DNA from: a bacterium
GTDB lineage: Bacteria > Patescibacteriota > Minisyncoccia > Phycocordibacterales > UBA2100
Assembly (NCBI GenBank): GCA_030674455.1
Contig: JAUSGQ010000007.1
Span: forward strand, 19,947 to 83,946
Direction: 5' to 3'
Length of the DNA stretch: 64,000 bases
The translations under genes and the position numbers were made by a program. The notes below the pieces were generated by a model. That model was not told the DNA's origin and did not search any database. It saw only the letters and a list, made by a program, of their open reading frames with translations. Shown here one piece after another: positions 14,588 through 53,465 of the stretch (its first letter is position 1; each line of letters starts with the position of its first letter).

Positions 14588-14686
14588 ACTTAATTATCTT
14601 GCTGTGTAAGTTATTGATCACGCTGGCCTCCTTACGGGGCATGCGACCGCCAAAGAAACTTTCTCAATTTTGCCAAGACAGAATGT

Positions 14687-14718
14687 CAACGATATCTCAC
14701 GGTCGTGAGATATCGTTG
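14687..14718. promoter_or_regulatory. perfect 15-bp inverted repeat CAACGATATCTCACG-GT-CGTGAGATATCGTTG (operator-like)
   Basis: The palindrome is visible on inspection. There is no T-run, so it is not a typical terminator. Confidence 0.4.
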
Positions 14719-15019
14719 AATGCTTGTGAGCTCCAAAATATGAAACTTAGCGCGCTTACGCAGTCCTAGAAATCGCAAATATGATACAATCGCCATCTAT
14801 GAATATTGACGAGTTGCAAGAAAAAAGCGACAAGATGTTCCATGACCATGGCGATATTCTTATAAAAGTCTTTTCCGTTCTCGTTGCGTTTATTCTCCTG
14901 GCTCTTTGGTTTGCATCTACTGTCCGTCCGCAGGATTTTGCGCCAACCGATATTCAGCAACAAAATAGCTAGAATCTGTTGCGCTGACTCGCCTCATTCA
15001 TACATGGTATTATCAACGT

Positions 15020-20302: not shown

Positions 20303-22378
20303 ATGAGTAAATCTGGCGTATTCAAGCTACGTAGTGATTATCGACCAGCTGGAGATCAACCTACGGCTATAAAGTCACTCGTCGACGGCTTGAAAGAAGG
20401 GAAACGACACCAGACACTACTTGGCGTCACCGGTTCCGGCAAGACCTTTACGATGGCAAATGTGATTGAAAAAACGCAGAAACCTACGCTCGTCATTGCG
20501 CACAACAAGACGCTTGCCGCTCAACTCACTGCGGAATATCGCGAGTTCTTTCCCGAAAATGCAGTGCATTACTTTGTTTCTTATTACGATTACTATCAGC
20601 CGGAAGCATATATGCCGATAAGCGATACATATATCGAAAAAGAATCGCAAGTAAATGAGGACATAGAAAGGCTGCGGCACGCGGCGACGCAGGCGCTGCT
20701 TACAAGAAAAGATGTCATTGTCGTCGCGTCGGTCTCCTGCATTTATGGCCTAGGTAGCCCGTTTGAGTACGAGAAAGTAAACATGAAGCTCACGAAAGGA
20801 GAGCCGCTCACTCGCGCCGCTCTTATGAGACGACTAATCGGTATGTATTTCGAAAGAGTTGCCGGCGACCTTTCGCCCGGCACTTTTCGCGCGCTTGGCT
20901 CGTACGTGGAGATCATGCCGGCAAACGAGAGAATTATTAAAAGAATCGACCTCTCACAAGGTAAAGTCTCTAAAATAGAAGAAATCGACGCGACAACGCG
21001 TGAATCATTAGGGACGCACGACGCAATATTTGTTTTCCCGGCGAAGCATTATGTGACACCAAAGGATGTGCAAGAACTTGCACTTACTGATATTGAGCTC
21101 GAGCTTAAGGAACAGTTAAAAAAGTTTGATGCGGCTGGCAAAATATTGGAGGCGGAGCGATTGAAGCGAAGGACTCGTCAGGACATCTCAATGATACGCG
21201 AGTTCGGATTCTGCAACGGTATTGAAAATTATTCGCGGCACTTCGACAGACGGCAAGCGGGAGAGCCGCCGCATACTCTGCTTTCGTATTTTACGAAGAA
21301 TGTTGGAAGTTCAACGGATTTTCTCACAATTATAGATGAATCGCACGTTACCGTTCCGCAGATAGGCGGCATGTACGCAGGAGACCGCGCGCGCAAGGAT
21401 ATGCTGGTGCAACACGGATTCCGGCTTCCGAGCGCGATTGATAACAGACCGCTCAATTTTGATGAATTCCAAGAGCGTGTCGGACAAACAATTTATACGA
21501 GCGCGACACCCGGAACGTATGAATTAGAACATAGCGGCAAACCTATCGAACAGGTCATCCGCCCTACAGGACTCGTTGACCCAGAAATTATCGTGAAGCC
21601 CATCGTGGGCGGTGGACCGAGGACGGTCCTCAAGGGAGCCCGAGGACCGTCCTCGGTCCCCGAGAAGTATCCGGGGCAGGTAAAGGATTTCATCGCCGAG
21701 GCAGAAATCGTTACCAAGCGGGGCGGACGCTCGATGGTCACCGTCCTTACGAAAAAAATGGCAGAAGATCTGACAACCTTTTTGCTCGAAAAGAAGATTA
21801 GAGCGCAGTATGTACATTCCGACGTGAAAACAATCGAAAGAATAGAAATTCTTACGAATTTCCGCAAGGGCACGTTTGATGTATTGGTCGGCGTCAACTT
21901 ATTGCGAGAAGGATTGGATTTGCCCGAAGTCGAGCTCGTAGGAATTATGGACGCCGATAAAGAGGGCTTTCTGCGTTCCGAAACTTCACTCATCCAAACA
22001 ATCGGCCGAGCTGCGAGAAACGTGCTGGGTCGTGTGATTTTGTACGCGGATTCTCCTACGGGTTCTATGGAGAGGGCAATTCGCGTGACAAATGAGAGGC
22101 GCGCCCGCCAAATTGAATACAATAAGAAGCATGGTATTACGCCAAAAACGATAAAGACTAGGATAAAAGATATCGTGGGAGATATCGTAAGCGCAAGAAG
22201 GCGTGCGGTATTTGACCTTGCAAAGCTCGATTCTGCGGCATATGCGGGAAGCAAGGCAAGCTTAATCACAGCCAAGCGACGAGAAATGCGAGAGGCAGCG
22301 AGTATACTTGATTTTGAAACAGCCGCGCTTTTGCGGGATGAAATTCAAGAACTTGAAAAGGGTAAACGAAAGCGATAA
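20303..22378 (+). CDS. uvrB: excinuclease ABC subunit B
   Basis: Helicase motifs GVTGSGKT, the beta-hairpin region YYDYYQPEAY and a C-terminal UVR domain. Confidence 0.95.
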   Translation: MSKSGVFKLRSDYRPAGDQPTAIKSLVDGLKEGKRHQTLLGVTGSGKTFTMANVIEKTQKPTLVIAHNKTLAAQLTAEYREFFPENAVHYFVSYYDYYQPEAYMPISDTYIEKESQVNEDIERLRHAATQALLTRKDVIVVASVSCIYGLGSPFEYEKVNMKLTKGEPLTRAALMRRLIGMYFERVAGDLSPGTFRALGSYVEIMPANERIIKRIDLSQGKVSKIEEIDATTRESLGTHDAIFVFPAKHYVTPKDVQELALTDIELELKEQLKKFDAAGKILEAERLKRRTRQDISMIREFGFCNGIENYSRHFDRRQAGEPPHTLLSYFTKNVGSSTDFLTIIDESHVTVPQIGGMYAGDRARKDMLVQHGFRLPSAIDNRPLNFDEFQERVGQTIYTSATPGTYELEHSGKPIEQVIRPTGLVDPEIIVKPIVGGGPRTVLKGARGPSSVPEKYPGQVKDFIAEAEIVTKRGGRSMVTVLTKKMAEDLTTFLLEKKIRAQYVHSDVKTIERIEILTNFRKGTFDVLVGVNLLREGLDLPEVELVGIMDADKEGFLRSETSLIQTIGRAARNVLGRVILYADSPTGSMERAIRVTNERRARQIEYNKKHGITPKTIKTRIKDIVGDIVSARRRAVFDLAKLDSAAYAGSKASLITAKRREMREAASILDFETAALLRDEIQELEKGKRKR
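21614..21662. repeat. in-frame palindromic insert in uvrB (CCGAGGACGGTCCTC-AAGGGAGC-CGAGGACCGTCCTCGG), encoding GGGPRTVLKGARGPSSVPE
   Basis: The inverted repeat is visible. Relative to E. coli UvrB as I recall it, this region carries an extra segment of about 20 aa. Confidence 0.7.
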
Positions 22379-24590: not shown

Positions 24591-27287
24591 ATGTCAAAAA
24601 AAAACGAACATTCAGGGGAAGCCGAGAAAATCGTAGTTAAAGGCGCACGCACGCATAACTTGAAGAACATCACGGTAGAAATACCGCGGAATAAAATGGT
24701 GGTTTTTACAGGCCTTTCCGGCTCTGGGAAATCATCTCTCGCTTTTGACACCATATTTGCCGAGGGCCAGCGCAAATACGTGGAGTCTCTTTCTGCCTAT
24801 GCCCGTCAGTTCTTGCGGCAAATGCAAAAACCGGATGTCGATGAGATATCCGGCCTATCTCCTGCCATTTCAATAGACCAAAAATCGCGCTCGAATAATC
24901 CACGTTCCACAGTCGCTACAATTACCGAAATCTATGATTATCTGCGTGTTCTCTATGCGAGAGTAGGCAAACCTCACTGCACTATCTGCGGCAGGGAAGT
25001 TAAGAAACATACGAATGAGGAGATACTTGAGTCAGTTCTCAAAATAGTGGACAAGGCTCGAAAGTACCAAGGAGAGACCTTAAAATACCCAAGGTCTCAC
25101 CTTAAGGTTCAAGATAAGAAGCTCACAAAAAATGTATCGAGCGCAAAGGTCACAATAACGTCACCGGTGGTTGTCGGTAGAAAAGGGGAGTACTACCAGC
25201 TTCTTTATGACTTGCTCAATAAGGGATTCGAGAAAGTAATAATTGATGGCGAAGAGAAGAAGCTGCGTGAAAGAATCATTCTCGAGAAGAATCATAAACA
25301 CGATATAGATGTCGTGGTCGATGAAATATTTGTCAGTGAATTTGCCGACGATGCGAAAGCTGCGCGCGAACGGGCATCGGAAGCTATCGAAAGAGCTCTG
25401 CATGAATCCAATGGGCTGGTAAAGATAATAGGCGCGAGCGGAGAATCACACATTGTCTCGGCAAAGTTTATGTGCCCGTACGACGGATTCTCATTTCCTG
25501 AAATCGAGCCGCGGCTCTTTTCGTTCAATTCTCCGCATGGCGCTTGCCCCGCATGCAATGGCCTAGGTTCTAAGTATTTCTTTGGCGACGAGCCGTGCGA
25601 TGTGTGTAATGGTGCCCGGTTGCGTCCGGAGGCATTAAATGTGTTTCTTGGGACAAATAGTCGAGGAGACACCTCGCAAGCGAGGAGCCACCTCGACTCA
25701 CCCCATGGTCTGCATATTGTCGATTTAAGCTCGTCATCTATAGACGACGCAAAGAAATTCTTTGACTCGCTTAAACTTACCAAAAAGGAAGAGGAAATAT
25801 CCAAGGTCGTAATCAAAGAAATTATGAGCCGGCTGCGCTTTATGCAAGATGTCGGCATTGAATACTTAACACTCGACCGAAAAGCCAACACTCTATCGGG
25901 CGGTGAAGCACAGCGCATTCGTCTGGCATCACAGCTTGGAAGCGGGCTCGTTGGCGCGCTCTATGTGCTTGATGAGCCGACAATCGGGCTTCACCAGCGC
26001 GACAACGACAAACTTATTGAGACTCTCAAACACCTGCGCGATATCGGCAATACAGTAATCGTGGTAGAACACGATGAGGACACCATTTTCGCATCCGATT
26101 ACATCGTGGATCTAGGCCCTGGCGCTGGCATTCATGGAGGTAATGTCGTGGTGTCGGGGTGGCTCGATGAGCTATTGACCGCCAAATCCAATAAGTCCGG
26201 CTCGCGTACTCTTGCGTATCTACGTGGAGAGTCATCAATTGAAACGCCGGAGAAATGGCGAACTGCTGACAGAGGAAAGATAAAAATTCGCGGGGCTTCA
26301 AAATTTAACATTAAAAATATAAACGTTGATATACCGCTCGGCAAACTTGTGGCAATCACGGGGGTGTCTGGTTCCGGCAAGTCGACGTTTCTCTATGAGA
26401 TGCTTCATCGCAATTTGCTGGCGCGCTTTGATAAGCGGTACCGTACGGCAAAAATCTACAACTGCAAGGAATTCAGCGGAACGGAATATCTTTCACGCTC
26501 CATATTGATTGATCAATCGCCCATAGGAAGAACCCCGCGCTCAAATCCTGCAACGTACACAGGTGCTTTCACGCACATTCGCGACCTATTCGCGATGAGC
26601 GAGGATGCTCGAGCGCGCGGATGGGGTCCGGGACGATTTAGCTTCAATGTAAAAGGCGGGCGATGTGAGGTATGCCAGGGCAACGGCCTTGTCGCTGTCG
26701 AAATGCACTTTTTGCCGACGGTCTATGTCACATGCGACATGTGCAACGGAAAACGTTTTATGAAGGAGACACTTGATGTTAAATATAAAAAGAAAAGCAT
26801 TTATGACGTGTTATCCATGACCGTCGAAGAGGCCTCGGCCTTCTTTGAGGATGTTCCTGCAATATCTGACAGGTTAAAAACTTTGTCTGATGTTGGCCTG
26901 GACTATCTAGAACTCGGCCAGAGCGCGACAACTCTATCCGGCGGTGAAGCGCAGCGAGTGAAAATTGCGTCAGAACTATATCGGCCGTTGGATGCAAAAA
27001 CGATGTACCTGTTGGATGAACCCACTGTGGGACTCCACTACGACGACGTGCAAAAACTTATCGATATATTGCAAAAGCTGGTTCAGCGGGGAAATAGCGT
27101 CGTTGTTATCGAACACAATCTTGATGTCTTGAAATGCGCAGATTGGATTATGGATATGGGACCGGAAGGAGGCGCCGGAGGCGGCGAAATCGTAGCCCGA
27201 GGAACGCCGCTCGAAGTTTCTAAAACCGACGGCTCATACACCGGATATTATCTGAAGCGAGTTTTGAAGAGAAAGGTAAAAGATTGA
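24591..27287 (+). CDS. uvrA: excinuclease ABC subunit A
   Basis: Two ABC modules with zinc-finger Cys clusters. The start is set at Met 24591 to avoid overlapping the terminator. Confidence 0.95.
25660..25697. repeat. in-frame imperfect palindrome or direct repeat in uvrA (GTCGAGGAGACACCTCGC-AA-GCGAGGAGCCACCTCGAC), encoding [14 protein letters not shown]
   Basis: It uses the same CGAGGA/TCCTCG word as the uvrB insert. Relative to E. coli UvrA as I recall it, this region is about 18 aa longer. Confidence 0.55.
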
Positions 27288-27303
27288 GATGTCATCTCAA
27301 TCT
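27281..27303. terminator. hairpin AGATTGAGATG-T-CATCTCAATCT overlapping the uvrA stop codon (family of 3)
   Basis: 11-bp arms. Related copies lie at 36390..36420 and 41847..41867. Confidence 0.5.
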
Positions 27304-27538
27304 TTTCATCCTAAAGGGGTTTTAAAGCTATCCGGAGCTTAAGCTTGACTCAAATTCTGCAGGGTGTACAAAGCCATTATCATCGGCTGTTTTGTGGTCG
27401 ATGATCCGTTCCTCTGAGGGAAAGTGAGGGATTGTAGGTGGCATAAAAAGCCACACGCGGGATGTATTCAAAGCATCCCCAATGTGACCGGACTCTGACA
27501 CAACACGATTCGTGTGTTGCAGTGGCCGGTCTTTTTCT

Positions 27539-30500
27539 TTATGTATATGCATCGACCGAGATAGATTTGAGTTCAGACGCCTTAATTCCTGCAAAAGCCA
27601 TGATGAATGCCTCGGCAAGCTGGCGATTGGTTATGAGCGGTATATTCAAGTCCACCGCTTTTCGGCGGATTATGTAGCCGTCTATCGCATCGCGGCCAAA
27701 TGCTTGAGCGGGAATATTTATTATCAAATCTACTTTACCTTTCTCTATAAGCGTTCCTACATTGGGCTCCTTGCCTCCGATTTTATAAACCTTTTCACAT
27801 GCAATTCCATTTTCTCTCATAAAATCGGCAGTATGCTCGGTGGCAAATAACTTGAAATTCATTTTGGCCAATTCTTGCAGAGCGGATAGTAATTTAATTT
27901 TATTTTCCTCTTTTCCCAAGGAAATCAGTATATTTCCCGACGCTTTGGTCGGGATCCCGACCTCGCTTCGCGAGCGTCGGGACTTATACGGCAATCTCCG
28001 ACGCTTTGGTCGGGGCAGGCGGAATCCTGAAGCAAGCATTGATTTAATCAGAGCTTCTGAAAATGTATCACCAAAACAAGCGACTTCGCCGGTAGAAGCC
28101 ATTTCCACGTTGGAAACGGGGTCGGCACCCTTTATGCGCGCATAGGAGAATTGCGGCGACTTTACTGCAATGTAATCAAGTTCAAGGGTGCGATAATCGC
28201 CGGAAACGTCTTTACCGAGCATCGCGCGCGTAGCAATATCAATAAAGTTATATCCCGTAGCTTTTGACACGAAAGGAAAGCTTCGAGATGAACGAACATT
28301 GCACTCAATGACTTGCAAATGGTTATCTTTTGCGATGAATTGAATATTGAACGGGCCGGTAATTTTCAGTTCTTTGACGACGTCCTTCGTGATGTGTTTA
28401 GCTCGTCGAATTGTCTCCATATATGTGCGCTGGGGAGGCAAAACCACCGTAGCGTCGCCAGAGTGCGTGCCGGCATTTTCGACGTGCTCCGTAATCGCGT
28501 AAATTATGAGCTTCCCGCGCGAAGCAACTCCGTCAATTTCAATTTCCCGCGCATTCTCGATAAATTTGGAAATCACGACCGGATGTTCCGTAGAGATATC
28601 AACCGCGCGTTTGAGAAAGCGCAAAAGAGATGTCTCGTCGTGCGCAACGCTCATCGCAGAGCCGGAGAGAACATATGACGGCCGGACAAGCACGGGATAT
28701 CCGATTCGCGCCGCAGCTATCGCTGCTTCTTTATGAGTAGTAAGTTCTACCCACTCGGGCTGATCAATTTCGAGCCTATCAAGAAGTTTAGAGAATGTGT
28801 GCCTGTCTTCGGCGCGGTCTATATCTTCTGGTTTTGTTCCCATGATTCTTACTCCTCGCTTATGCAGTGGGAGCGCGAGATTATTCGGAATTTGGCCGCC
28901 AGTAGAAATTACGACTCCTCGCGCTTTCTCAAATTGATAAATATCTAGAACACGCTCAAGCGAAAGTTCTTCAAAATACAGTCGGCTCGACATGTCGTAG
29001 TCGGTTGAAACGGTCTCCGGATTTGAATTTATCATTATCGTTTCGTATTCATTTTTTGAAAGAGTTTTTAACGCTTGTACGCAAGACCAATCAAATTCTA
29101 CCGACGAACCGATGCAATACGGTCCGCTTCCAAGGACGATCATACTTTTCTTGGTGCGACCTATATCATTCTCGGTCCCGTTATACGTCACATACAGATA
29201 ATTTGTTTTGGCGGGAAATTCTCCAGCCAAAGTGTCGATTTGCTTTATAACTGGCAGGATTTTGTGGCGCATTCGCTCCTGTCGGATCTTATCCTCAGTA
29301 CTTTTAATCAATGTGGCAATTTGAATATCAGAAAAACCAAGCTTCTTAGCCTCGAGCATGTCTTCTCTAAGAAGGTCTGACCTTCCAGGAAGGTCAGACC
29401 TTCTGAGATTTCTCGAGCAACGCATGATGTTCTTCATTTTTTCTAGAAACCACGGATCAATGCCGCCGGAAAGACGGCTGATCTTTGAGACGGACGTACC
29501 TCTGCGAAGTGCCTCTGCAATGGCAAAAATGCGGCGGGTAGTCGGGTGCTTGATTTCATCCAGATAATTTGCCACGCGAAAGTTACCATTTTTATGCGCT
29601 ACAAAACCATCCGCGCCAATGGAAAGCATACGAATAGCTTTCTGCAGTACCTCCTCAAAACTTCTGCCGATTGCCATCACTTCTCCCACACTTTTCATCT
29701 CCGTACCAATTTGCGTGATGGCATTCTCAAATTTCGTCAAATCCCAGCGCGGCATTTTAAGCACGATGTAATCAAGCGCCGGCTCGAAACAGGCCGTCGT
29801 GGATTTGGTTACCGAGTTTTTTAGTTGCGGCAGAGTAAAGCCCATTGCGAGTTTCGCCGCAATGAACGCGAGCGGATATCCTGTGGCCTTTGAGGCAAGC
29901 GCAGATGAGCGGGAAAGGCGCGCATTAACTTCTATGACGCGATAATCTCCGGTTTTCGGATGAAGCGCGTACTGTATATTGCATTCTCCCACGACGCCGA
30001 GATGCCTGATGGTCTTTATCGCGATTTCGCGCAAGCGATGATACTCCTCGTTCGTAAGAGTTTGTGACGGCGCCACGACCATACTTTCGCCCGTATGAAT
30101 GCCCATCGGGTCTATGTTTTCCATATTGCAAACGGAAATGCAGTTGTCGGTTCTGTCGCGCACAATTTCATACTCAACTTCTTTCCAACCGCACAAATCT
30201 TCTTCGATCAATACCTGCGGACTCGAGCCAAAGATTTCTGACAGTTTAGCGACAAGTTCTTTTTCCGTACGAACCACTCCGGAGCCAAGGCCGCCCAAGG
30301 CGAATCCCGCGCGCAACATGACCGGATAACCGATTTTTGTCGCCGCCTTTTTGGCATCAGATATATTTCTTGCTGCGAAACTTCGCGCTGTCTTAACATC
30401 AATTTTTTGCAGCCGCTTTATGAACATGTCTCTATCTTCTGTTTCGCGTATGACAGATACCGGTGTTCCCAAAACCTGCACTTTGTATTTAGAGAGAATC

Positions 30501-30838
30501 CCTTTCTCCTCCAGTTCAAGGCCGAGATTAAGCGCGGTTTGGCCGCCGAACCCTAGGAGAATCGCATCGGGTTTTTCTTTCTTGATAACCTGTACGGCAA
30601 ACGGCAAGGTAAGTGGCAAGAGGTAGACGACGTCTGCTACGTTTTCACTCTTTGCATCAGTTCCTTGAGCTGGCGAGTCCGTTTGAACTGTTGCGATATT
30701 CGGATTTATGAGTATGACGCGAATGCCTTCTTCTTTAAGAGCCTTAATCGCTTGTGTGCCGGAGTAATCAAATTCTCCGGCCTGACCGATTTTAAGACCG
30801 CCTGAACCGAGCAACAATACTTTTTTTATGGTCGTCAT
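27539..30838 (-). CDS. carB: carbamoyl-phosphate synthase large subunit
   Basis: 1099 aa with two ATP-grasp halves and an MGS-like C-terminal domain. Confidence 0.95.
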   Translation of the reverse strand: MTTIKKVLLLGSGGLKIGQAGEFDYSGTQAIKALKEEGIRVILINPNIATVQTDSPAQGTDAKSENVADVVYLLPLTLPFAVQVIKKEKPDAILLGFGGQTALNLGLELEEKGILSKYKVQVLGTPVSVIRETEDRDMFIKRLQKIDVKTARSFAARNISDAKKAATKIGYPVMLRAGFALGGLGSGVVRTEKELVAKLSEIFGSSPQVLIEEDLCGWKEVEYEIVRDRTDNCISVCNMENIDPMGIHTGESMVVAPSQTLTNEEYHRLREIAIKTIRHLGVVGECNIQYALHPKTGDYRVIEVNARLSRSSALASKATGYPLAFIAAKLAMGFTLPQLKNSVTKSTTACFEPALDYIVLKMPRWDLTKFENAITQIGTEMKSVGEVMAIGRSFEEVLQKAIRMLSIGADGFVAHKNGNFRVANYLDEIKHPTTRRIFAIAEALRRGTSVSKISRLSGGIDPWFLEKMKNIMRCSRNLRRSDLPGRSDLLREDMLEAKKLGFSDIQIATLIKSTEDKIRQERMRHKILPVIKQIDTLAGEFPAKTNYLYVTYNGTENDIGRTKKSMIVLGSGPYCIGSSVEFDWSCVQALKTLSKNEYETIMINSNPETVSTDYDMSSRLYFEELSLERVLDIYQFEKARGVVISTGGQIPNNLALPLHKRGVRIMGTKPEDIDRAEDRHTFSKLLDRLEIDQPEWVELTTHKEAAIAAARIGYPVLVRPSYVLSGSAMSVAHDETSLLRFLKRAVDISTEHPVVISKFIENAREIEIDGVASRGKLIIYAITEHVENAGTHSGDATVVLPPQRTYMETIRRAKHITKDVVKELKITGPFNIQFIAKDNHLQVIECNVRSSRSFPFVSKATGYNFIDIATRAMLGKDVSGDYRTLELDYIAVKSPQFSYARIKGADPVSNVEMASTGEVACFGDTFSEALIKSMLASGFRLPRPKRRRLPYKSRRSRSEVGIPTKASGNILISLGKEENKIKLLSALQELAKMNFKLFATEHTADFMRENGIACEKVYKIGGKEPNVGTLIEKGKVDLIINIPAQAFGRDAIDGYIIRRKAVDLNIPLITNRQLAEAFIMAFAGIKASELKSISVDAYT
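27935..28015. repeat. structured insert in the carB C-terminal region (direct repeats TCCCGACGCTTTGGTCGGG x2 with CTCGCTTCGCGAG between), encoding RPKRRRLPYKSRRSRSEVGIPTKAS on the minus strand
   Basis: Nested hairpins are visible. An arginine-rich segment of about 25 aa is absent from E. coli CarB at this position, as I recall it. Confidence 0.6.
29370..29404. repeat. perfect 17-1-17 palindrome AGAAGGTCTGACCTTCC-A-GGAAGGTCAGACCTTCT in frame in carB, encoding RRSDLPGRSDL
   Basis: The palindrome reads RSDLPGRSDL on both strands. It appears to be an 11-12-aa insertion relative to other CarB sequences. Confidence 0.75.
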
Positions 30839-30955: not shown

Positions 30956-32014
30956 CTAGATGCTGATAGAACGTATAAACTCATCAAATATCCATGCGGT
31001 GTCCGTTGGCCCCGGTGCTGCCTCGGGGTGGAACTGCACAGCTCGCCAGGCTTTTGATTTGTGCTTGATGCCCTCCACGCTTCCGTCATTCGCGTTGGTG
31101 AACCATACAGCCCAATCATGCGGAAGCGATTTTGCGTCAACAGCATACCCGTGATTTTGCGATGTTATGTAACAACGGCCTGTCTCCTGATCTACGCATG
31201 GTTGATTTTGTGAGCGATGACCGTATTTGAGCTTGTATGTACTTCCGCCCGCGGCGAGCGCCAAGAGTTGAGTTCCGAGGCAGATGCCTAATATCGGCTT
31301 TGGCATAAGCATTGCACGCTTGAGATTTTCAATTGTATTGCCGCACATGTTTGGGTCGCCGGGCCCGTTGGAAATCACAAGCGCATCATGCGGCTCATTC
31401 GCAAAATCATAGTCCCATGGAACGCGTACGATCGTAATTTCAGGGCGCACGAGTGAGCGCAAAATATTTTCCTTCATCCCGCAGTCAACTATAACGATGG
31501 TAGTGGCCCCATTGCCGTACGTTTCCGGCTTTTTTATACTGACCCGCGCAACGAGATTCTCCTTATTCGGGTCAACAAAAGCCGATGCAGTGAGGCGTCG
31601 CCTCACTGCATTCACAGGCCTGGCGTCTATTATGCCGAGCATCACACCGTGTTCGCGCAATTTTTTTGCAAGCGCACGCGTATCTACGCCCGTAATTGCC
31701 GGAACACCGGAGCGCTTAAGCCACTCCGATAATGACTCGCACGCCAACTGGTGCGAATAATTCTCGGAATAGTCCGCCACGATTAGGCCAGCGGCCTGGA
31801 TTTTATCGGATTCAAAATATTTACGTTCTGGCACGCCATAATTTCCCACCAGAGGATAGCTCAAGACAATGATTTGTCCTGCATATGAGGGGTCCGATAA
31901 GCTCTCTACATATCCGACCATCCCCGTGTTAAAAACCACCTCGCCGGATGCCGATACGGGTGCGCCAAAGCTTTTACCCTCAAATACTGTCCCGTCTTTA
32001 AGAGTTAATTTCAT
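30956..32014 (-). CDS. carA: carbamoyl-phosphate synthase small subunit (glutamine amidotransferase)
   Basis: GATase class I motifs, including ICLGHQ-like GICLGTQ. Confidence 0.9.
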   Translation of the reverse strand: MKLTLKDGTVFEGKSFGAPVSASGEVVFNTGMVGYVESLSDPSYAGQIIVLSYPLVGNYGVPERKYFESDKIQAAGLIVADYSENYSHQLACESLSEWLKRSGVPAITGVDTRALAKKLREHGVMLGIIDARPVNAVRRRLTASAFVDPNKENLVARVSIKKPETYGNGATTIVIVDCGMKENILRSLVRPEITIVRVPWDYDFANEPHDALVISNGPGDPNMCGNTIENLKRAMLMPKPILGICLGTQLLALAAGGSTYKLKYGHRSQNQPCVDQETGRCYITSQNHGYAVDAKSLPHDWAVWFTNANDGSVEGIKHKSKAWRAVQFHPEAAPGPTDTAWIFDEFIRSISI

Positions 32015-32238: not shown

Positions 32239-33561
32239 ATGTCGCGTGAGTATACTGGAAACATGGTGCGCGATGACTTAATCAAATTTAAATTGCCCGA
32301 CAGTCCGGGTATATACTATTATCGAAATTCGAGGGGCAAAATTCTATACATTGGTAAAGCTACATCTCTGCGCGACCGCGTACGGAGCTATTTTTTGTCA
32401 GGTCTATCGGAATCTCGAAGCACGGCAATCGCAGCAATGATAGATGAGACGCACTCCGTCACATGGCAAACGACCGAGTCGGTTCTTGAAGCTCTGATAC
32501 TCGAAGCGAATGAGATAAAAAAACATCAGCCGAAATACAATGCACGAGAAAAGGACGACAAGAGCTTTAATTTTCTCGTAATCACAAAGGAAGATTTCCC
32601 GCGCGTTTTAGTAATTCGCGGCCGCGAACTATTTTCTCCACTTATCGCTAATCGCTATTCGCTAACCGCTATCTTCGGCCCATATCCGCAGGGACGTTCA
32701 CTGCAAGAAGCTCTGAAAATCGTTCGGAAAATATTTCCTTTCCGCGATAAATGCATTCCATGTGACACTGCGGAAAAATCCTTACTTTCTAATTCGCGCG
32801 AATTAGAAAGTAAAGAAACTCATGTACATCTTAAACATAAATGCAGGCCGTGCTTCAATCATCAGATAGGATTATGTCCCGGTGTATGCAGTGGGGAAAT
32901 ATCAAAAAACGATTATGCTCGAACTATACGACACATTAAGACTCTATTTTCAGGGAAAATAAAGAGGTTGAAGAGGGATCTGGAACGAGAAATGAGAGCC
33001 GAATCGAAAGCCGAGCGATTTGAAAAGGCCGCCATATTGCGTCGACAAATTGGTTCGTTAAACCACATACGCGACGTATCGCTAATAAATAACGATAACA
33101 TGGCCGATTTACCCAGGAAACCTACGAGGATAGAGGCGTATGACGTGGCACATACGTCGGGATCGGAGACAGTAGCCGTAATGACTGTTGTGAATAATGG
33201 CGAGCCCGAAAAGAGTTCCTACAGAAAATTCAAGATTCAAACTGCTGCAAACGACGACATTGGAGCACTCAAAGAGGTTCTCTCACGCCGCCTGGCGCAC
33301 TCGGAGTGGCCCTTGCCGAGCGTGTTTGTTGTGGACGGAGGAACTGCGCAATTGCGTGCGGCCGCAAATATTCTAAAAGACGCTGGTATAATGATTCCCG
33401 TGGTATCTGTGGTAAAAAACGAATTTCATAAACCCGAACGGCTCATGGGAGATACGAATGCAATTAAGACCTTGGGAAAAGAAATTCTTCTTGCCAATCA
33501 AGAAGCGCATCGTTTTGCGATTACGTATCATAGAAAACGACGAGGTCGACTAACGATATGA
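32239..33561 (+). CDS. uvrC: excinuclease ABC subunit C, short form lacking C-terminal HhH
   Basis: GIY-YIG motif (PGIYYY...ILYIGKA), a UVR domain and an RNase H-like endonuclease domain. The track start at 32206 is also possible. Confidence 0.85.
   Translation: MSREYTGNMVRDDLIKFKLPDSPGIYYYRNSRGKILYIGKATSLRDRVRSYFLSGLSESRSTAIAAMIDETHSVTWQTTESVLEALILEANEIKKHQPKYNAREKDDKSFNFLVITKEDFPRVLVIRGRELFSPLIANRYSLTAIFGPYPQGRSLQEALKIVRKIFPFRDKCIPCDTAEKSLLSNSRELESKETHVHLKHKCRPCFNHQIGLCPGVCSGEISKNDYARTIRHIKTLFSGKIKRLKRDLEREMRAESKAERFEKAAILRRQIGSLNHIRDVSLINNDNMADLPRKPTRIEAYDVAHTSGSETVAVMTVVNNGEPEKSSYRKFKIQTAANDDIGALKEVLSRRLAHSEWPLPSVFVVDGGTAQLRAAANILKDAGIMIPVVSVVKNEFHKPERLMGDTNAIKTLGKEILLANQEAHRFAITYHRKRRGRLTI
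32782..32813. repeat. perfect 32-bp palindrome TTACTTTCTAATTCGC|GCGAATTAGAAAGTAA in frame in uvrC (encodes LSNSRELESK)
   Basis: TTCGCGCGAA core, as in the intergenic copies and the yggS copy. Confidence 0.8.
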
Positions 33562-35507: not shown

Positions 35508-35580
35508 GGGCCGGTAGTTCAGTGGTAGAACGTCTCATTTGCAATGAGAAGGTCGGGGGTTCGATTCCTCTCCGGTCCAC
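35508..35580 (+). tRNA. tRNA-Ala (anticodon UGC)
   Basis: Acceptor stem GGGCCGG/CCGGTCC with the G3:U70 Ala identity pair, anticodon loop CTCATTTGCAATGAG (TGC) and T-loop GGTTCGATTCC. Confidence 0.9.
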
Positions 35581-35650: not shown

Positions 35651-36376
35651 ATGATCTCTAACGGGGTCCACAAAATGATTAGTGCAAATCTTAGGAATAT
35701 AGAAGGCGAAATGAGTAGCGCGGGTAGGAAAGTTACCTTGGTTGCTGTAACAAAAAGCGTGGGGATAGACGAAACAAACGAAATCATTAAAGCGGGAGTG
35801 CGCGCAATCGGAGAAAATAGAGTCGAGGATTTTGAAAAGAAAATCACGCAATTGCTTCCGGTAGAAAAGCATTTCATCGGGCAAATTCAATCGCGAAAGA
35901 TTAAACGAATTGTAGAACTATTTGATGTTATTCAATCTGTCGATTCAATCGAGCACTTAGAGAAAATCGAGAGGGAGGCAGTCTCTCAAAACAAAAAAAT
36001 AAAAATTCTTCTACAGTTCAATATTTCACGGGAGGCGCAAAGAGGCGGCTTCGAACCAAGTGATGTCGTACAAATTATTAAAGCTATTGGAAGGTATTCA
36101 CTATCGGTTAATTCGCGCGAATTAACCGATAAGAGCAATAGCATTTTGTCGATTCAACATGTGGAAATCATCGGAGTGATGGGAATGGCTAGCGATACTA
36201 CAGATACTGAAGTGGTGAGAGAGCAGTTTCGCTTGCTAAAAGATATTAGAGACCAATTGCAGTCGAAATATCCTAAAATCAAAGAACTGTCGATGGGCAT
36301 GTCTAGTGACTGCCAAATCGCCCTGGAGGAAGGCGCCACAATACTGCGAATCGGCAGGGCACTATTCAGCAATTAG
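35651..36376 (+). CDS. yggS: YggS-family pyridoxal phosphate homeostasis protein
   Basis: VTKSV, GENRVQ-like GENRVE, HFIGQIQSRK and SMGMSSD motifs. Confidence 0.85.
   Translation: MISNGVHKMISANLRNIEGEMSSAGRKVTLVAVTKSVGIDETNEIIKAGVRAIGENRVEDFEKKITQLLPVEKHFIGQIQSRKIKRIVELFDVIQSVDSIEHLEKIEREAVSQNKKIKILLQFNISREAQRGGFEPSDVVQIIKAIGRYSLSVNSRELTDKSNSILSIQHVEIIGVMGMASDTTDTEVVREQFRLLKDIRDQLQSKYPKIKELSMGMSSDCQIALEEGATILRIGRALFSN
36105..36128. repeat. perfect 24-bp palindrome CGGTTAATTCGC|GCGAATTAACCG in frame in yggS (encodes SVNSRELTDK)
   Basis: Same TTCGCGCGAA core and the same reading frame (NSREL) as the uvrC copy. Confidence 0.8.
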
Positions 36377-36389
36377 CGCGTTTCTTTGA

Positions 36390-36420
36390 CAATCCAATGA
36401 GATGTCATCTCATTGGATTG
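36390..36420. terminator. hairpin CAATCCAATGAGATG-T-CATCTCATTGGATTG, 14 nt after the yggS stop
   Basis: 15-bp arms. It belongs to the same GAGATGNCATCTC family as 27281 and 41847. Confidence 0.5.
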
Positions 36421-41824: not shown

Positions 41825-41846
41825 GGCGGTTTTCTTATCCCAATCG

Positions 41847-41867
41847 ATTGAGATGACATCTCAATCC
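41847..41867. terminator. hairpin GATTGAGATG-A-CATCTCAATC after rplU (family of 3)
   Basis: 10-bp arms. A second hairpin ATGAGGTT-TAA-CCTCAT follows. Confidence 0.5.
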
Positions 41868-44109: not shown

Positions 44110-44197
44110 AAAGCCATGCATTTTTGACGGTGCGGGTTTATCTTCCCTTCTACAGGTGCCTATCATGACCGATAGGCCGTCAAAAATGCATGGCTTT
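44110..44197. other. long structured element with 21-bp inverted repeat AAAGCCATGCATTTTTGACGG / CCGTCAAAAATGCATGGCTTT and an inner hairpin CCTATC..GATAGG, inside a 457-nt noncoding region
   Basis: The inverted repeat is visible on inspection. This is the largest intergenic region in the window. Confidence 0.5.
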
Positions 44198-45476: not shown

Positions 45477-45537
45477 GATTTTGGGGTCCGACCGATATAA
45501 CGCTAGCAAATGCGGTCGCATTTGCTAGCGTTATAGA

Positions 45538-52713: not shown

Positions 52714-52742
52714 CTTCTACCAAGGTCTTACCTTGGTAGAAG
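52714..52742. repeat. 27-bp GTAG-type palindrome CTTCTACCAAGGT-CTT-ACCTTGGTAGAAG (REP-like, left flank of RAYT). It begins 2 nt after the ung stop, and its right arm encodes the RAYT C-terminal LLPR.
   Basis: The palindrome is visible. Inverted-centre copies lie at 53439..53465 and 53235..53258. Confidence 0.85.
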
Positions 52743-53420
52743 TTCGTTATCATCTTGCCGAGCATATATTTTTGCCTCCTCGATAAGTTGGTCAATCGTT
52801 TGCGAAGCATCGAGTATTTCCAACACCGGCTCTTTGTTTATGATAGAGGACTCCGGACGCGTTCCTGAGTAGTCGAGAAAACTGGAGTACTGATACTCCG
52901 ATAAAAATTTCCGCAAATTCTTTTCGTTCTGTATCGAACATTGTTTCCATTTCGGCTCTATTAGCTCTGCAGGGTTTGCATGAATATAACTAACTACTCT
53001 ATTTAGATTCTGATCCGACTCTATTCGTTTCGCCTTAAAGGTGCCTTGAAACAATGCTCCGTTACGTTCGTATTTGATATTGAAGTACATCGTGTAGCCC
53101 GTTCCGAGCTGTCGCATAAAGGATGTGATGCCTCCATAATTATGTTCACGTAAAAACAGGTGATGATGGTTTGGCATCAGGCAGTACGCGCCAATGTCCA
53201 CGAGTTTTTCTTTTCTCTCAACTGCCGCCACGAGTTCTACCAAGGTCTTACCTTGGTTGATGTTGCTGATATGTATTGGTTCGCGACTGTTACATGCATA
53301 TAGAAGCATCACAAATCGCTCGTAGTCTTCTGGATTTGTGAAAACGACCCGCTTATCAACGCCGCGATTGTAGCAGTGATACCATTCGTTCGGTGCGAAG
53401 GAAATTGTTCGCTGTCCCAT
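52728..53420 (-). mobile_element. IS200-like HUH tyrosine transposase (REP-associated tyrosine transposase, RAYT-like)
   Basis: WYHCYNRG (YHVxxRG-like), HUH motif CLMPNHHHLFL and catalytic-Tyr region YIHANPAE. The track ORF starts at TTG 53510, but the likely start is Met 53420. Confidence 0.75.
53235..53258. repeat. internal copy of the RAYT-flank palindrome (TTCTACCAAGGTCTTACCTTGGTTGA) in frame inside the RAYT gene (encodes INQGKTLVEL)
   Basis: Same word, with arms degenerate by 2 nt. Confidence 0.7.
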
Positions 53421-53438
53421 ATCGATAATAATAACATG

Positions 53439-53465
53439 TTCTACCAAGGTAAGACCTTGGTAGAG
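53439..53465. repeat. right-flank palindrome TTCTACCAAGGT-AAG-ACCTTGGTAGAG (centre inverted relative to the left copy)
   Basis: The REP pair is in inverted orientation around the RAYT gene. Confidence 0.85.

Follow-up and report, generated by a model that had tools for sequence, protein, structure and literature searches.

A perfect palindrome inside carB of a Patescibacteria genome is probably a doubled hairpin repeat of a transposase-linked family

We analysed a stretch of 64,000 nucleotides from a Patescibacteria genome (contig JAUSGQ010000007.1; hereafter the window), in which carB, the gene for the large subunit of carbamoyl-phosphate synthase, carries a perfect palindrome within its coding sequence. 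The gene is a 1099-aa open reading frame (ORF) on the reverse strand (27539..30838), identified as CPS1-like from its PDB matches and Pfam domains. The palindrome at 29370..29404 (35 bp) reads AGAAGGTCTGACCTTCC-A-GGAAGGTCAGACCTTCT, two perfect 17-nt arms around one central base (17-1-17), which is the sole difference between the 35-mer and its own reverse complement. On the reverse strand it forms, together with base 29369, codons 479–490 of carB (RRSDLPGRSDLL), and the peptide RRSDLPGRSDL is read from either strand of the 35-mer. With mismatches allowed, the arms extend to 21 nt and are 95% complementary (29366..29408; TCTA-AGAAGGTC ... GACCTTCT-GAGA). Across 100 dinucleotide-preserving shuffles of the window, perfect arms were never longer than 12 nt, and 0.12 matches to the arm word were expected in the window, the observed ones being the carB palindrome itself only. 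The original prediction of a perfect, in-frame palindrome that encodes the same peptide on both strands is therefore correct.

It missed, however, a mini-palindrome in each arm of the 35-mer. Each arm has the 7-1-7 structure GAAGGTC-N-GACCTTC, and the 35-mer therefore consists of two 18-nt units. Unit 1 (29371..29385) is GAAGGTC-T-GACCTTC, with the core AAGGT-N3-ACCTT inside; unit 2 (29389..29403), GAAGGTC-A-GACCTTC, is its exact reverse complement, and the sub-centres T and A are mutually complementary. Compared as direct repeats, the 18-nt units show three differences, precisely those needed for a perfect inverted repeat. The predicted hairpin has a folding energy of -32.6 kcal/mol as RNA (z = -5.5) and -19.2 kcal/mol as DNA, with z-scores of about -5.5 to -5.9, and a hairpin of this predicted strength may, as a side effect, influence translation or replication.

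The window CarB contains the full set of CPSase domains in Pfam, and the PDB entries that it matches best are those of human CPS1, at 1162 bits, and E. coli CarB, at 825 bits; by bit score this bacterial protein is nearer to the human mitochondrial enzyme than to that of E. coli. Its nearest relatives are CarB proteins of uncultured Patescibacteria (Kaiserbacteria/Paceibacteria-like), the best match in a species-representative genome collection being 82% identical. The element was first placed between the two synthetase halves; it is in fact located within the oligomerisation domain (CPSase_L_D3, aa 428–510). In the AlphaFold model it covers the end of a helix (462–480), a loop (481–486) and the start of the next helix (487–499), and the block containing it has a mean pLDDT (AlphaFold's confidence score) of 55, against 85 and 90 in the adjoining blocks. 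The modelled helix-loop-helix connection thus appears to tolerate extra residues. An insert of 11–12 aa absent from other CarB proteins had been proposed, but alignments to 60 and 155 homologs give an excess of only six residues, a window-specific gain of 18 bp, and the homologous loop is present elsewhere, palindromic at native length in close orthologs. Relatives have L-PRSDLG-R, L-SRRRLD-x or T-ARSHLA-V where the window has L-RRSDLPGRSDLL-R, and the flanks L...R(E/K)(D/E)xLEAKK are kept.

A gene for a Y1 (HUH) tyrosine transposase of 230 aa lies 23 kb from the carB palindrome (52728..53420, reverse strand). Pfam, NCBIfam, fold and synteny indicate that it resembles the RAYTs, the tyrosine transposases associated with repetitive extragenic palindromic (REP) elements. 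Its product matches Pfam Y1_Tnp at 33.9 bits (cut-off 23), and the HHH and YIHANP motifs are readable in its sequence. Because sequence searches of the PDB failed, a fold search was needed: the best match of the predicted structure (pLDDT 89.9), and the only one at E<=0.001, was PDB 4ER8 (E=1.2e-5), E. coli TnpA_REP bound to a REP hairpin. Homologs are named "REP element-mobilizing transposase RayT" by JGI, and the gene order Peptidase_M16, transposase, UDG is conserved between the window and the related loci L161 and L165, in keeping with the single-copy, vertically inherited nature of RAYTs (Bertels et al. 2017). Its low NCBIfam score and the PDB sequence searches mark the window transposase as belonging to a divergent subfamily.

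The transposase gene is flanked by inverted TTCTACCAAGGT-N3-ACCTTGGTAGAA palindromes (N3 = ctt/aag), one at its 3' end (52714..52742; CTTCTACCAAGGT-ctt-ACCTTGGTAGAAG, 13-3-13) and one at its 5' end (53440..53464; TCTACCAAGGT-aag-ACCTTGGTAGA). Their loops are complementary, so the two flanking REPs are inverted relative to each other; RAYTs invariably have two inverted REPs at their flanks (Nunvar 2010, PMC2817692). Such repeats also stand beside the transposases of L092, L163 and L165, where the central bases indicate direct, not inverted, orientation, and L161 has one, on the 3' side. A third copy in the window, with one mismatch, lies within the transposase ORF itself (53237..53259, peptide NQGKTLVE). 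QG[KRP]TL is conserved at this position across the transposase family, down to ~50% identity, so this internal repeat appears to be old; in the predicted structure its residues belong to a loop modelled with low confidence.

We collected carB loci from genomes and metagenomes and compared the same site. In many relatives, a perfect palindrome has its centre at the identical nucleotide of the same carB codon, and the length is unchanged. These palindromes differ in sequence: CTACCAAGGTC-g-GACCTTGGTAG in L002, with L002 and L167 sharing the form CTACCAAGGTC-g-GACCTTGG(T/c)AG; CTACCAAGGT-ctc-ACCTTGGTAG in L117; ATCAAGGT-ctc-ACCTTGAT in L120; CACGGCAAGGC-aag-GCCTTGCCGTG in L001; TCACGGCAAGGT-ctc-ACCTTGCCGTGA in L168; TGGCAAGGCC-c-GGCCTTGCCA in L007; and CTGTCAAGGCG-t-CGCCTTGACAG in L008, which in L019 is lengthened to 14-1-14. 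Other versions occur in L086, L169, L170 and L091. CAAGG-N5-CCTTG is common to all the relatives' versions. The residues bordering this core co-vary (P..G, S..D, A..A) because the symmetry of the DNA demands it. Among 13 sequences, both sides had changed in 8 of 14 pairs, and double-change cells numbered 29 against 12.1 ± 3.0 in shuffles, with none of 500 shuffles reaching 29; when partners were slid sideways as controls, pairing was only 25–40%. Two of these loci, L168 and L170 (proteins P0004 and P0006), are different carB loci of one assembly, GCA_030648875.1, so this bin is a mix of two related genomes.

The state of the site is bimodal. Among the 39 loci with DNA, 8 had 10–11 of 11 possible pairs; of the other 31, 29 had 1–5 pairs (mean 3.1; within-gene null 2.7), and the only two intermediates were L120 (8 pairs) and L046 (6 pairs). 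Palindromic and non-palindromic states are interleaved in a neighbour-joining tree. Every sampled member of the window's subclade (82–87% aa identity) has a palindrome, in at least four sequence types, and only the P0010/L081 lineage (79%) is without one. We considered an ancient insertion followed by slow decay, but non-palindromic orthologs have no residual symmetry (3.1 vs 2.7 pairs), and this simple model is therefore unsupported.

The doubled form recurs in L166, whose CarB is only 74% identical to that of the window. There AGAAGGTCTGACCTTC-tag-GAAGGTCAGACCTTCT occupies the same carB site and is identical to the window element at 33 of 35 nt, whereas the sequences flanking the two double palindromes are unrelated and the net length change in L166 is +2 aa. 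The DNA of the element is conserved beyond the needs of coding: all 11 residues common to the two elements use the same codon, and since a shared residue has a shared codon with a gene-wide probability of 0.41, the probability of 11/11 is about 5e-5. The unrelated flanks led us to reject an exchange of a longer piece of carB between the two lineages by homologous recombination. Double units with complementary sub-centres occur in the carB of L166, in its uvrC and in the window uvrB (21614-21659). The L166 uvrC palindrome (L166 6473-6518) is perfect over 46 bp, comprises two CAAGGCG-type units (ACATATCAAGGCGACGCCTTGCT/AGCAAGGCGTCGCCTTGATATGT) and has the same design as the window carB element. 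We rejected tandem duplication or slippage followed by drift and preferred inverted duplication, because the differences are of the inverted-repeat type and in each of four independent double units the sub-centres complement each other. From sequence comparison, this double-unit design points to an inverted duplication or to a pairing of two units as in REPINs, the inverted doublets of REPs.

Several observations link the carB element to the repeats of the transposase. The core AAGGT-N3-ACCTT has seven copies in the window against 0.05 expected, four of them around the transposase gene, one in uvrA and two in the carB palindrome, and four of the seven lie inside genes. The carB units share with the transposase-flanking repeats both this core and a TCTA foot, the foot of the extended carB arms resembling the TCTA-CCAAGGT foot of the flanking repeats. 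The transposase of L165, 84% identical to that of the window, is flanked by CTACCAAGGTC-g-GACCTTGGTAG, repeats that match the L002 carB-site palindrome at 23 of 23 nt. The L092 genome has its transposase-flanking repeat, TCTATAGAGGCG-n-CGCCTCTATAGA, in frame within carB as well, at a different hot spot. The carB palindrome is probably an intragenic REP-type hairpin, arranged as an inverted doublet in the manner of a compact REPIN and belonging to the repeat population of the RAYT-like transposase.

How the element came to its present form can be outlined as follows. An older single unit of ~23 bp, CTA-CCAAGGTC-N-GACCTTGG-TAG, which codes for L-PRSDLG-R at the same carB codons in relatives, would have been the starting point. 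In the window lineage the 6-codon core would then have become a 12-codon element of two exactly reverse-complementary 17-nt units, most likely through one inverted duplication, either on the extruded hairpin, by fold-back or template switching, or by transposase-mediated joining of two units. The ribosome would read through the element, adding six residues to the helix-loop-helix of the oligomerisation domain, presumably with neutral effect. The Watson-Crick symmetry would be maintained by a process acting on DNA and not by selection for an RNA stem.

A number of points weigh against this interpretation. The carB units are of the GAAGG type and the flanking repeats of the CAAGG type, with an identity of only ~17 of 24 nt; elsewhere, GAAGG-type units were found only in the carB of L166, in L083 and in L081. 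The GTAG/CTAC foot of the flanking repeats, which is paired within their stem, is replaced by TGAG/CTAA in the carB element, and the latter has no GT(A/G)G head. In the genome of L050/L163, the outer arms of the carB-site palindrome are unlike the repeats flanking its own transposase. The palindrome word had been expected to recur: in the 64-kb window the exact arm word has no second copy with up to three mismatches allowed, and it is the AAGGT-N3-ACCTT core that recurs. As for the transposase, its sole NCBIfam match, REP_Tyr_transpos (NF047646), scores 43.6 bits, under the cut-off of 80; searching the PDB with its sequence alone gave nothing significant and with a 40-sequence profile weak matches only. 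Its action on the carB copy is something that we infer. Finally, the single unit entails zero length change relative to non-palindromic orthologs or outgroups, so a simple transposase-style insertion cannot explain its arrival.

A census of perfect palindromes (arm of at least 10 nt, loop of at most 4 nt) placed the carB element in a wider context. Loci of related Patescibacteria contain 148 such palindromes in 756 kb, or 1.96 per 10 kb, against 0.18 in other loci. Sixty-two percent of the clade palindromes lie within ORFs of at least 200 aa, and 69 fall into 21 families with common arm 9-mers across genes and genomes. The first mismatch flanking the 148 palindromes was G-T or T-G in 16% of cases, against ~17% by chance, a frequency that gives no indication of a stem acting in RNA. 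We dismissed both DNA uptake sequences and restriction sites as explanations: the palindromes comprise more than 20 unrelated arm families with a symmetry extending far beyond any short core.

The principal rival to a transposase-linked repeat is a purely hairpin-templated origin, which we regard as unlikely. In E. coli, quasipalindrome-templated mutation works through template switching at hairpins; it yields perfectly symmetrical inverted repeats whose two arms change in concert, and an inverted duplication that doubles the unit could arise in the same way. Applied here, an imperfect inverted repeat in loop-coding DNA would have been repeatedly perfected and extended in place by quasi-palindrome correction or template switching, no transposase would be involved, and the resemblance to the flanking repeats would be incidental. 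The perfect Watson-Crick pairing without excess of wobble pairs speaks for this, as do the base unit that leaves the length unchanged, the all-or-none state of the site with both arms changing together, the complementary sub-centres of the double units, which fold-back copying would give, and the 11-fold enrichment in the clade of palindromes of many unrelated sequences. Such a process nevertheless leaves the association with the transposase unexplained, including the 23/23-nt match between the L002 carB palindrome and the L165 flanking repeats, as well as the recurrence of identical arms at unrelated loci, across genes and genomes. Nor does it account for a double element that is 33/35 identical between the window and L166 despite near-saturated synonymous sites, and the non-palindromic orthologs show no proto-palindromy from which it could have started (mean 3.1 pairs, null 2.7).

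A more speculative and rather improbable variant is that a RAYT-type enzyme, or a linked hairpin-dependent repair process, overwrites fixed blocks of 6–12 codons with the current repeat variant, without net insertion; tolerant sites of housekeeping genes in this Patescibacteria clade may in this way undergo a cassette-like exchange. Overwriting would explain why at least four unrelated perfect palindromes occupy the same carB codons in close relatives, and it would also explain the all-or-none state of the site and the identical 36-nt element in two distant genomes. If true, a domesticated transposase would here be rewriting and diversifying protein loops in place in a manner not described before.

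It is still less probable that the palindrome is a selected cis-element of carB, whether an mRNA structure that paces translation between the synthetase halves, a site for an RNase or regulator, or a DNA operator for a dimeric protein. Its position is conserved in many lineages with compensatory changes around an invariant CAAGG...CCTTG core, and the predicted mRNA hairpin is very stable (z = -5.5, as given above). Selection of this kind is nonetheless unlikely because most orthologs do without the palindrome (31 of 39 clade orthologs with DNA, and all outgroups), because RNA signatures are missing, the stems showing neither tolerance nor excess of G-U pairs and the 1-nt centre being typical of DNA symmetry rather than of an RNA loop, and because these palindrome families also turn up in intergenic DNA and in genes unrelated to carB (uvrA, uvrB, uvrC and that of the transposase). 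An Rfam scan found no family at the carB site, its single match in the window being a tRNA (35508-35579), and a terminator and promoter scan found nothing there, with terminator-like sites absent from 29000-29800. We judge the element to be a tolerated passenger and not a device serving carB.

The original prediction likened the palindrome to the Rickettsia palindromic elements (RPEs). Membership of that family, or the arrival of another insertion resembling a miniature inverted-repeat transposable element as a whole 35-bp unit, is very improbable. RPE-1 is about 100–150 bp long and is not known to have a transposase. The carB element is far shorter, its host belongs to the Patescibacteria, and the enzyme linked with it, a Y1 transposase, is of a type characteristic of REPs. 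It is in frame, palindromic and situated in a loop of a conserved enzyme, other in-frame inserts are present in the window, and L166 has the same 36-nt unit between unrelated flanks, all of which an insertion would lead one to expect. The net gain, however, is 18 bp and not 35, and counterparts of half of the element occupy the same site in relatives, so the element is not a clean insertion. The likeness to RPEs holds as a functional analogy, RPE-4 and RPE-6 having been classed as GTAG REPs (PMC3733652), but not as family membership. Lastly, inverted chimeras can arise in metagenome assemblies, but an artefact of assembly or amplification, for example a fold-back chimera, is scarcely credible given the intact reading frame, the same structure in the independent assembly L166, same-site palindromes in more than 12 independent assemblies and an identical protein deposited in NCBI (P0001).

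Read as a REP-type doublet, the carB element can be compared with known systems. With REP/REPIN-RAYT systems (PMC2817692; Bertels & Rainey 2011, PMC3116915; 4ER8) the window shares a short repeat that forms a hairpin, a Y1 (HUH) transposase gene that is single-copy and in conserved gene order, with two inverted repeat copies flanking it, the GTAG/CTAC tetranucleotide at the foot of these flanking repeats, and a palindromy kept by complementary changes, as REP palindromy is preserved through complementary mutations (PMC2817692); inverted doublets (REPINs) are the common form there. The differences are that the palindromes here are perfect with GTAG in the stem, whereas REPs have an unpaired head; that the doublet spacer is 1–3 nt, against tens of nt in REPINs; that the elements lie mostly inside genes (the 62% in long ORFs) and are apparently of low copy number; and that the host belongs to the Patescibacteria and not the Proteobacteria. 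In addition, the window transposase is divergent, falling below the NCBIfam cut-off, and has a repeat copy in its own ORF, and the base unit sits at the carB site without any change in length.

GTAG REPs within genes, many of them dimeric and many in uvrA or other repair genes, have been described before (Di Nocera, De Gregorio & Rocco 2013, PMC3733652). These GTAG/CGTC elements are likewise in frame, often dimeric and notably common in genes of excision repair, uvrA among them; the window parallels are in uvrA, uvrB and uvrC and also in carA and carB. The inserts reported in that study are of 20–30 aa (Opitutus, Thauera, Rickettsia and others), whereas here 6 aa are added to a palindromic block of native length and different repeat variants occupy the same codons across a whole clade. 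RPEs (Ogata et al. 2000, cited in PMC3733652) are also palindromic and are likewise tolerated in frame where conserved proteins have loops, but they differ in host, in length and apparently in sequence, and the carB element is not a clean insertion. Our literature search for palindromic or REP elements in the Candidate Phyla Radiation (CPR) or Patescibacteria found no relevant paper in the library that it covered. Intragenic REPs are thus already known in other bacteria (2013), and what is new here is the host clade and the turnover in place at fixed codons.

These results extend REP/RAYT biology, whose study has so far been almost confined to Proteobacteria, to the CPR, in whose compact genomes such repeats lie largely within genes rather than between them. 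The carB site provides a natural series, with fixed codons, many lineages with differing perfect palindromes and one doubled state, that could serve to test the ways in which REP hairpins are copied, exchanged and held symmetrical. The elements give lineage-specific peptides and strong hairpins to the core genes carA, carB, uvrA, uvrB and uvrC, and they can lead to errors when metagenome-derived Patescibacteria genomes are assembled, annotated and aligned.

The carB palindrome had been counted among several in-frame inserts of the window, and such a wider set is indeed present: uvrA, uvrB, uvrC, carA and two other sites in carB contain palindromic or hairpin-forming DNA where the length of orthologs varies. 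The uvrA element is a degenerate copy of the REP core (25076..25110, forward strand; TACCCAAGGTCTCACCTTAAGG, peptide YPRSHLKV), lying in a cluster of AAGGT/ACCTT half-sites where ortholog length varies. In uvrB, a double-unit palindrome (21614-21659, forward strand) has perfect 18-nt arms around a 10-nt spacer, each arm being a 6-1-6 mini-palindrome with sub-centres g and c, and encodes a 16-aa insert (GPRTVLKGARGPSSVP) at a site where orthologs have 0–20 aa. In L139, the residues at this site (PRSDL...QGPTL) correspond to two CAAGG-type units read in two frames.

Another palindrome family, TCTAATTCGC/GCGAATTAGA, encodes LSNSREL in frame in uvrC (32782-32813; LLSNSRELESK) and in a gene for a YggS-like protein that binds pyridoxal phosphate (36102-36131; LSVNSRELTDK); the uvrC copy lies within an insert of ~25 aa that some relatives lack. 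The hypervariable linker of carA contains a perfect 13-1-13 palindrome (31585-31611) that encodes NAVRRRLTA. A family of the form ATGTTCGAC(T/C)T-cgt-A(A/G)GTCGAACAT, for example at L002 2072, L007 7731, and L117 11215 and 16180, and its compensated variant ATGAACGACTT-cgt-AAGTCGTTCAT occur in at least seven genomes, in long ORFs that are apparently uvrA, carA or uvrC, and also in carB.

Long perfect or near-perfect palindromes with arms of up to 19 nt are also found between the genes of the window, at 752-785, 1546-1581, 2615-2650, 14686-14719, 27278-27306, 36390-36420, 41846-41866 and 45496-45535. Those starting at 1546 and 2615 form a pair, and a GATTGAGATG-N-CATCTCAATC family stands at gene ends. 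A perfect 21-nt inverted repeat with a 46-nt spacer lies at 44110-44130 / 44177-44197.

Within carB itself, two further window-specific inserts (aa 55–64 and aa 944–968) are also of low confidence in the AlphaFold model. The larger one, KRRRLPYKSRRSRSEVGIPTKASG, is a 25-aa insert in the segment 27914-28024 (carB aa 939–975), whose DNA includes two copies of CCGACCAAAGCGTCGG and has a predicted folding energy of -47 kcal/mol; relatives have peptides resembling the insert (SRRSRSDVGIPTKASG, GVGVPTSAKGG) there and at another carB site. The smaller one, SPAQGTDAKS (30647-30676), lies where nine other homologs have variable inserts of 8–20 aa.

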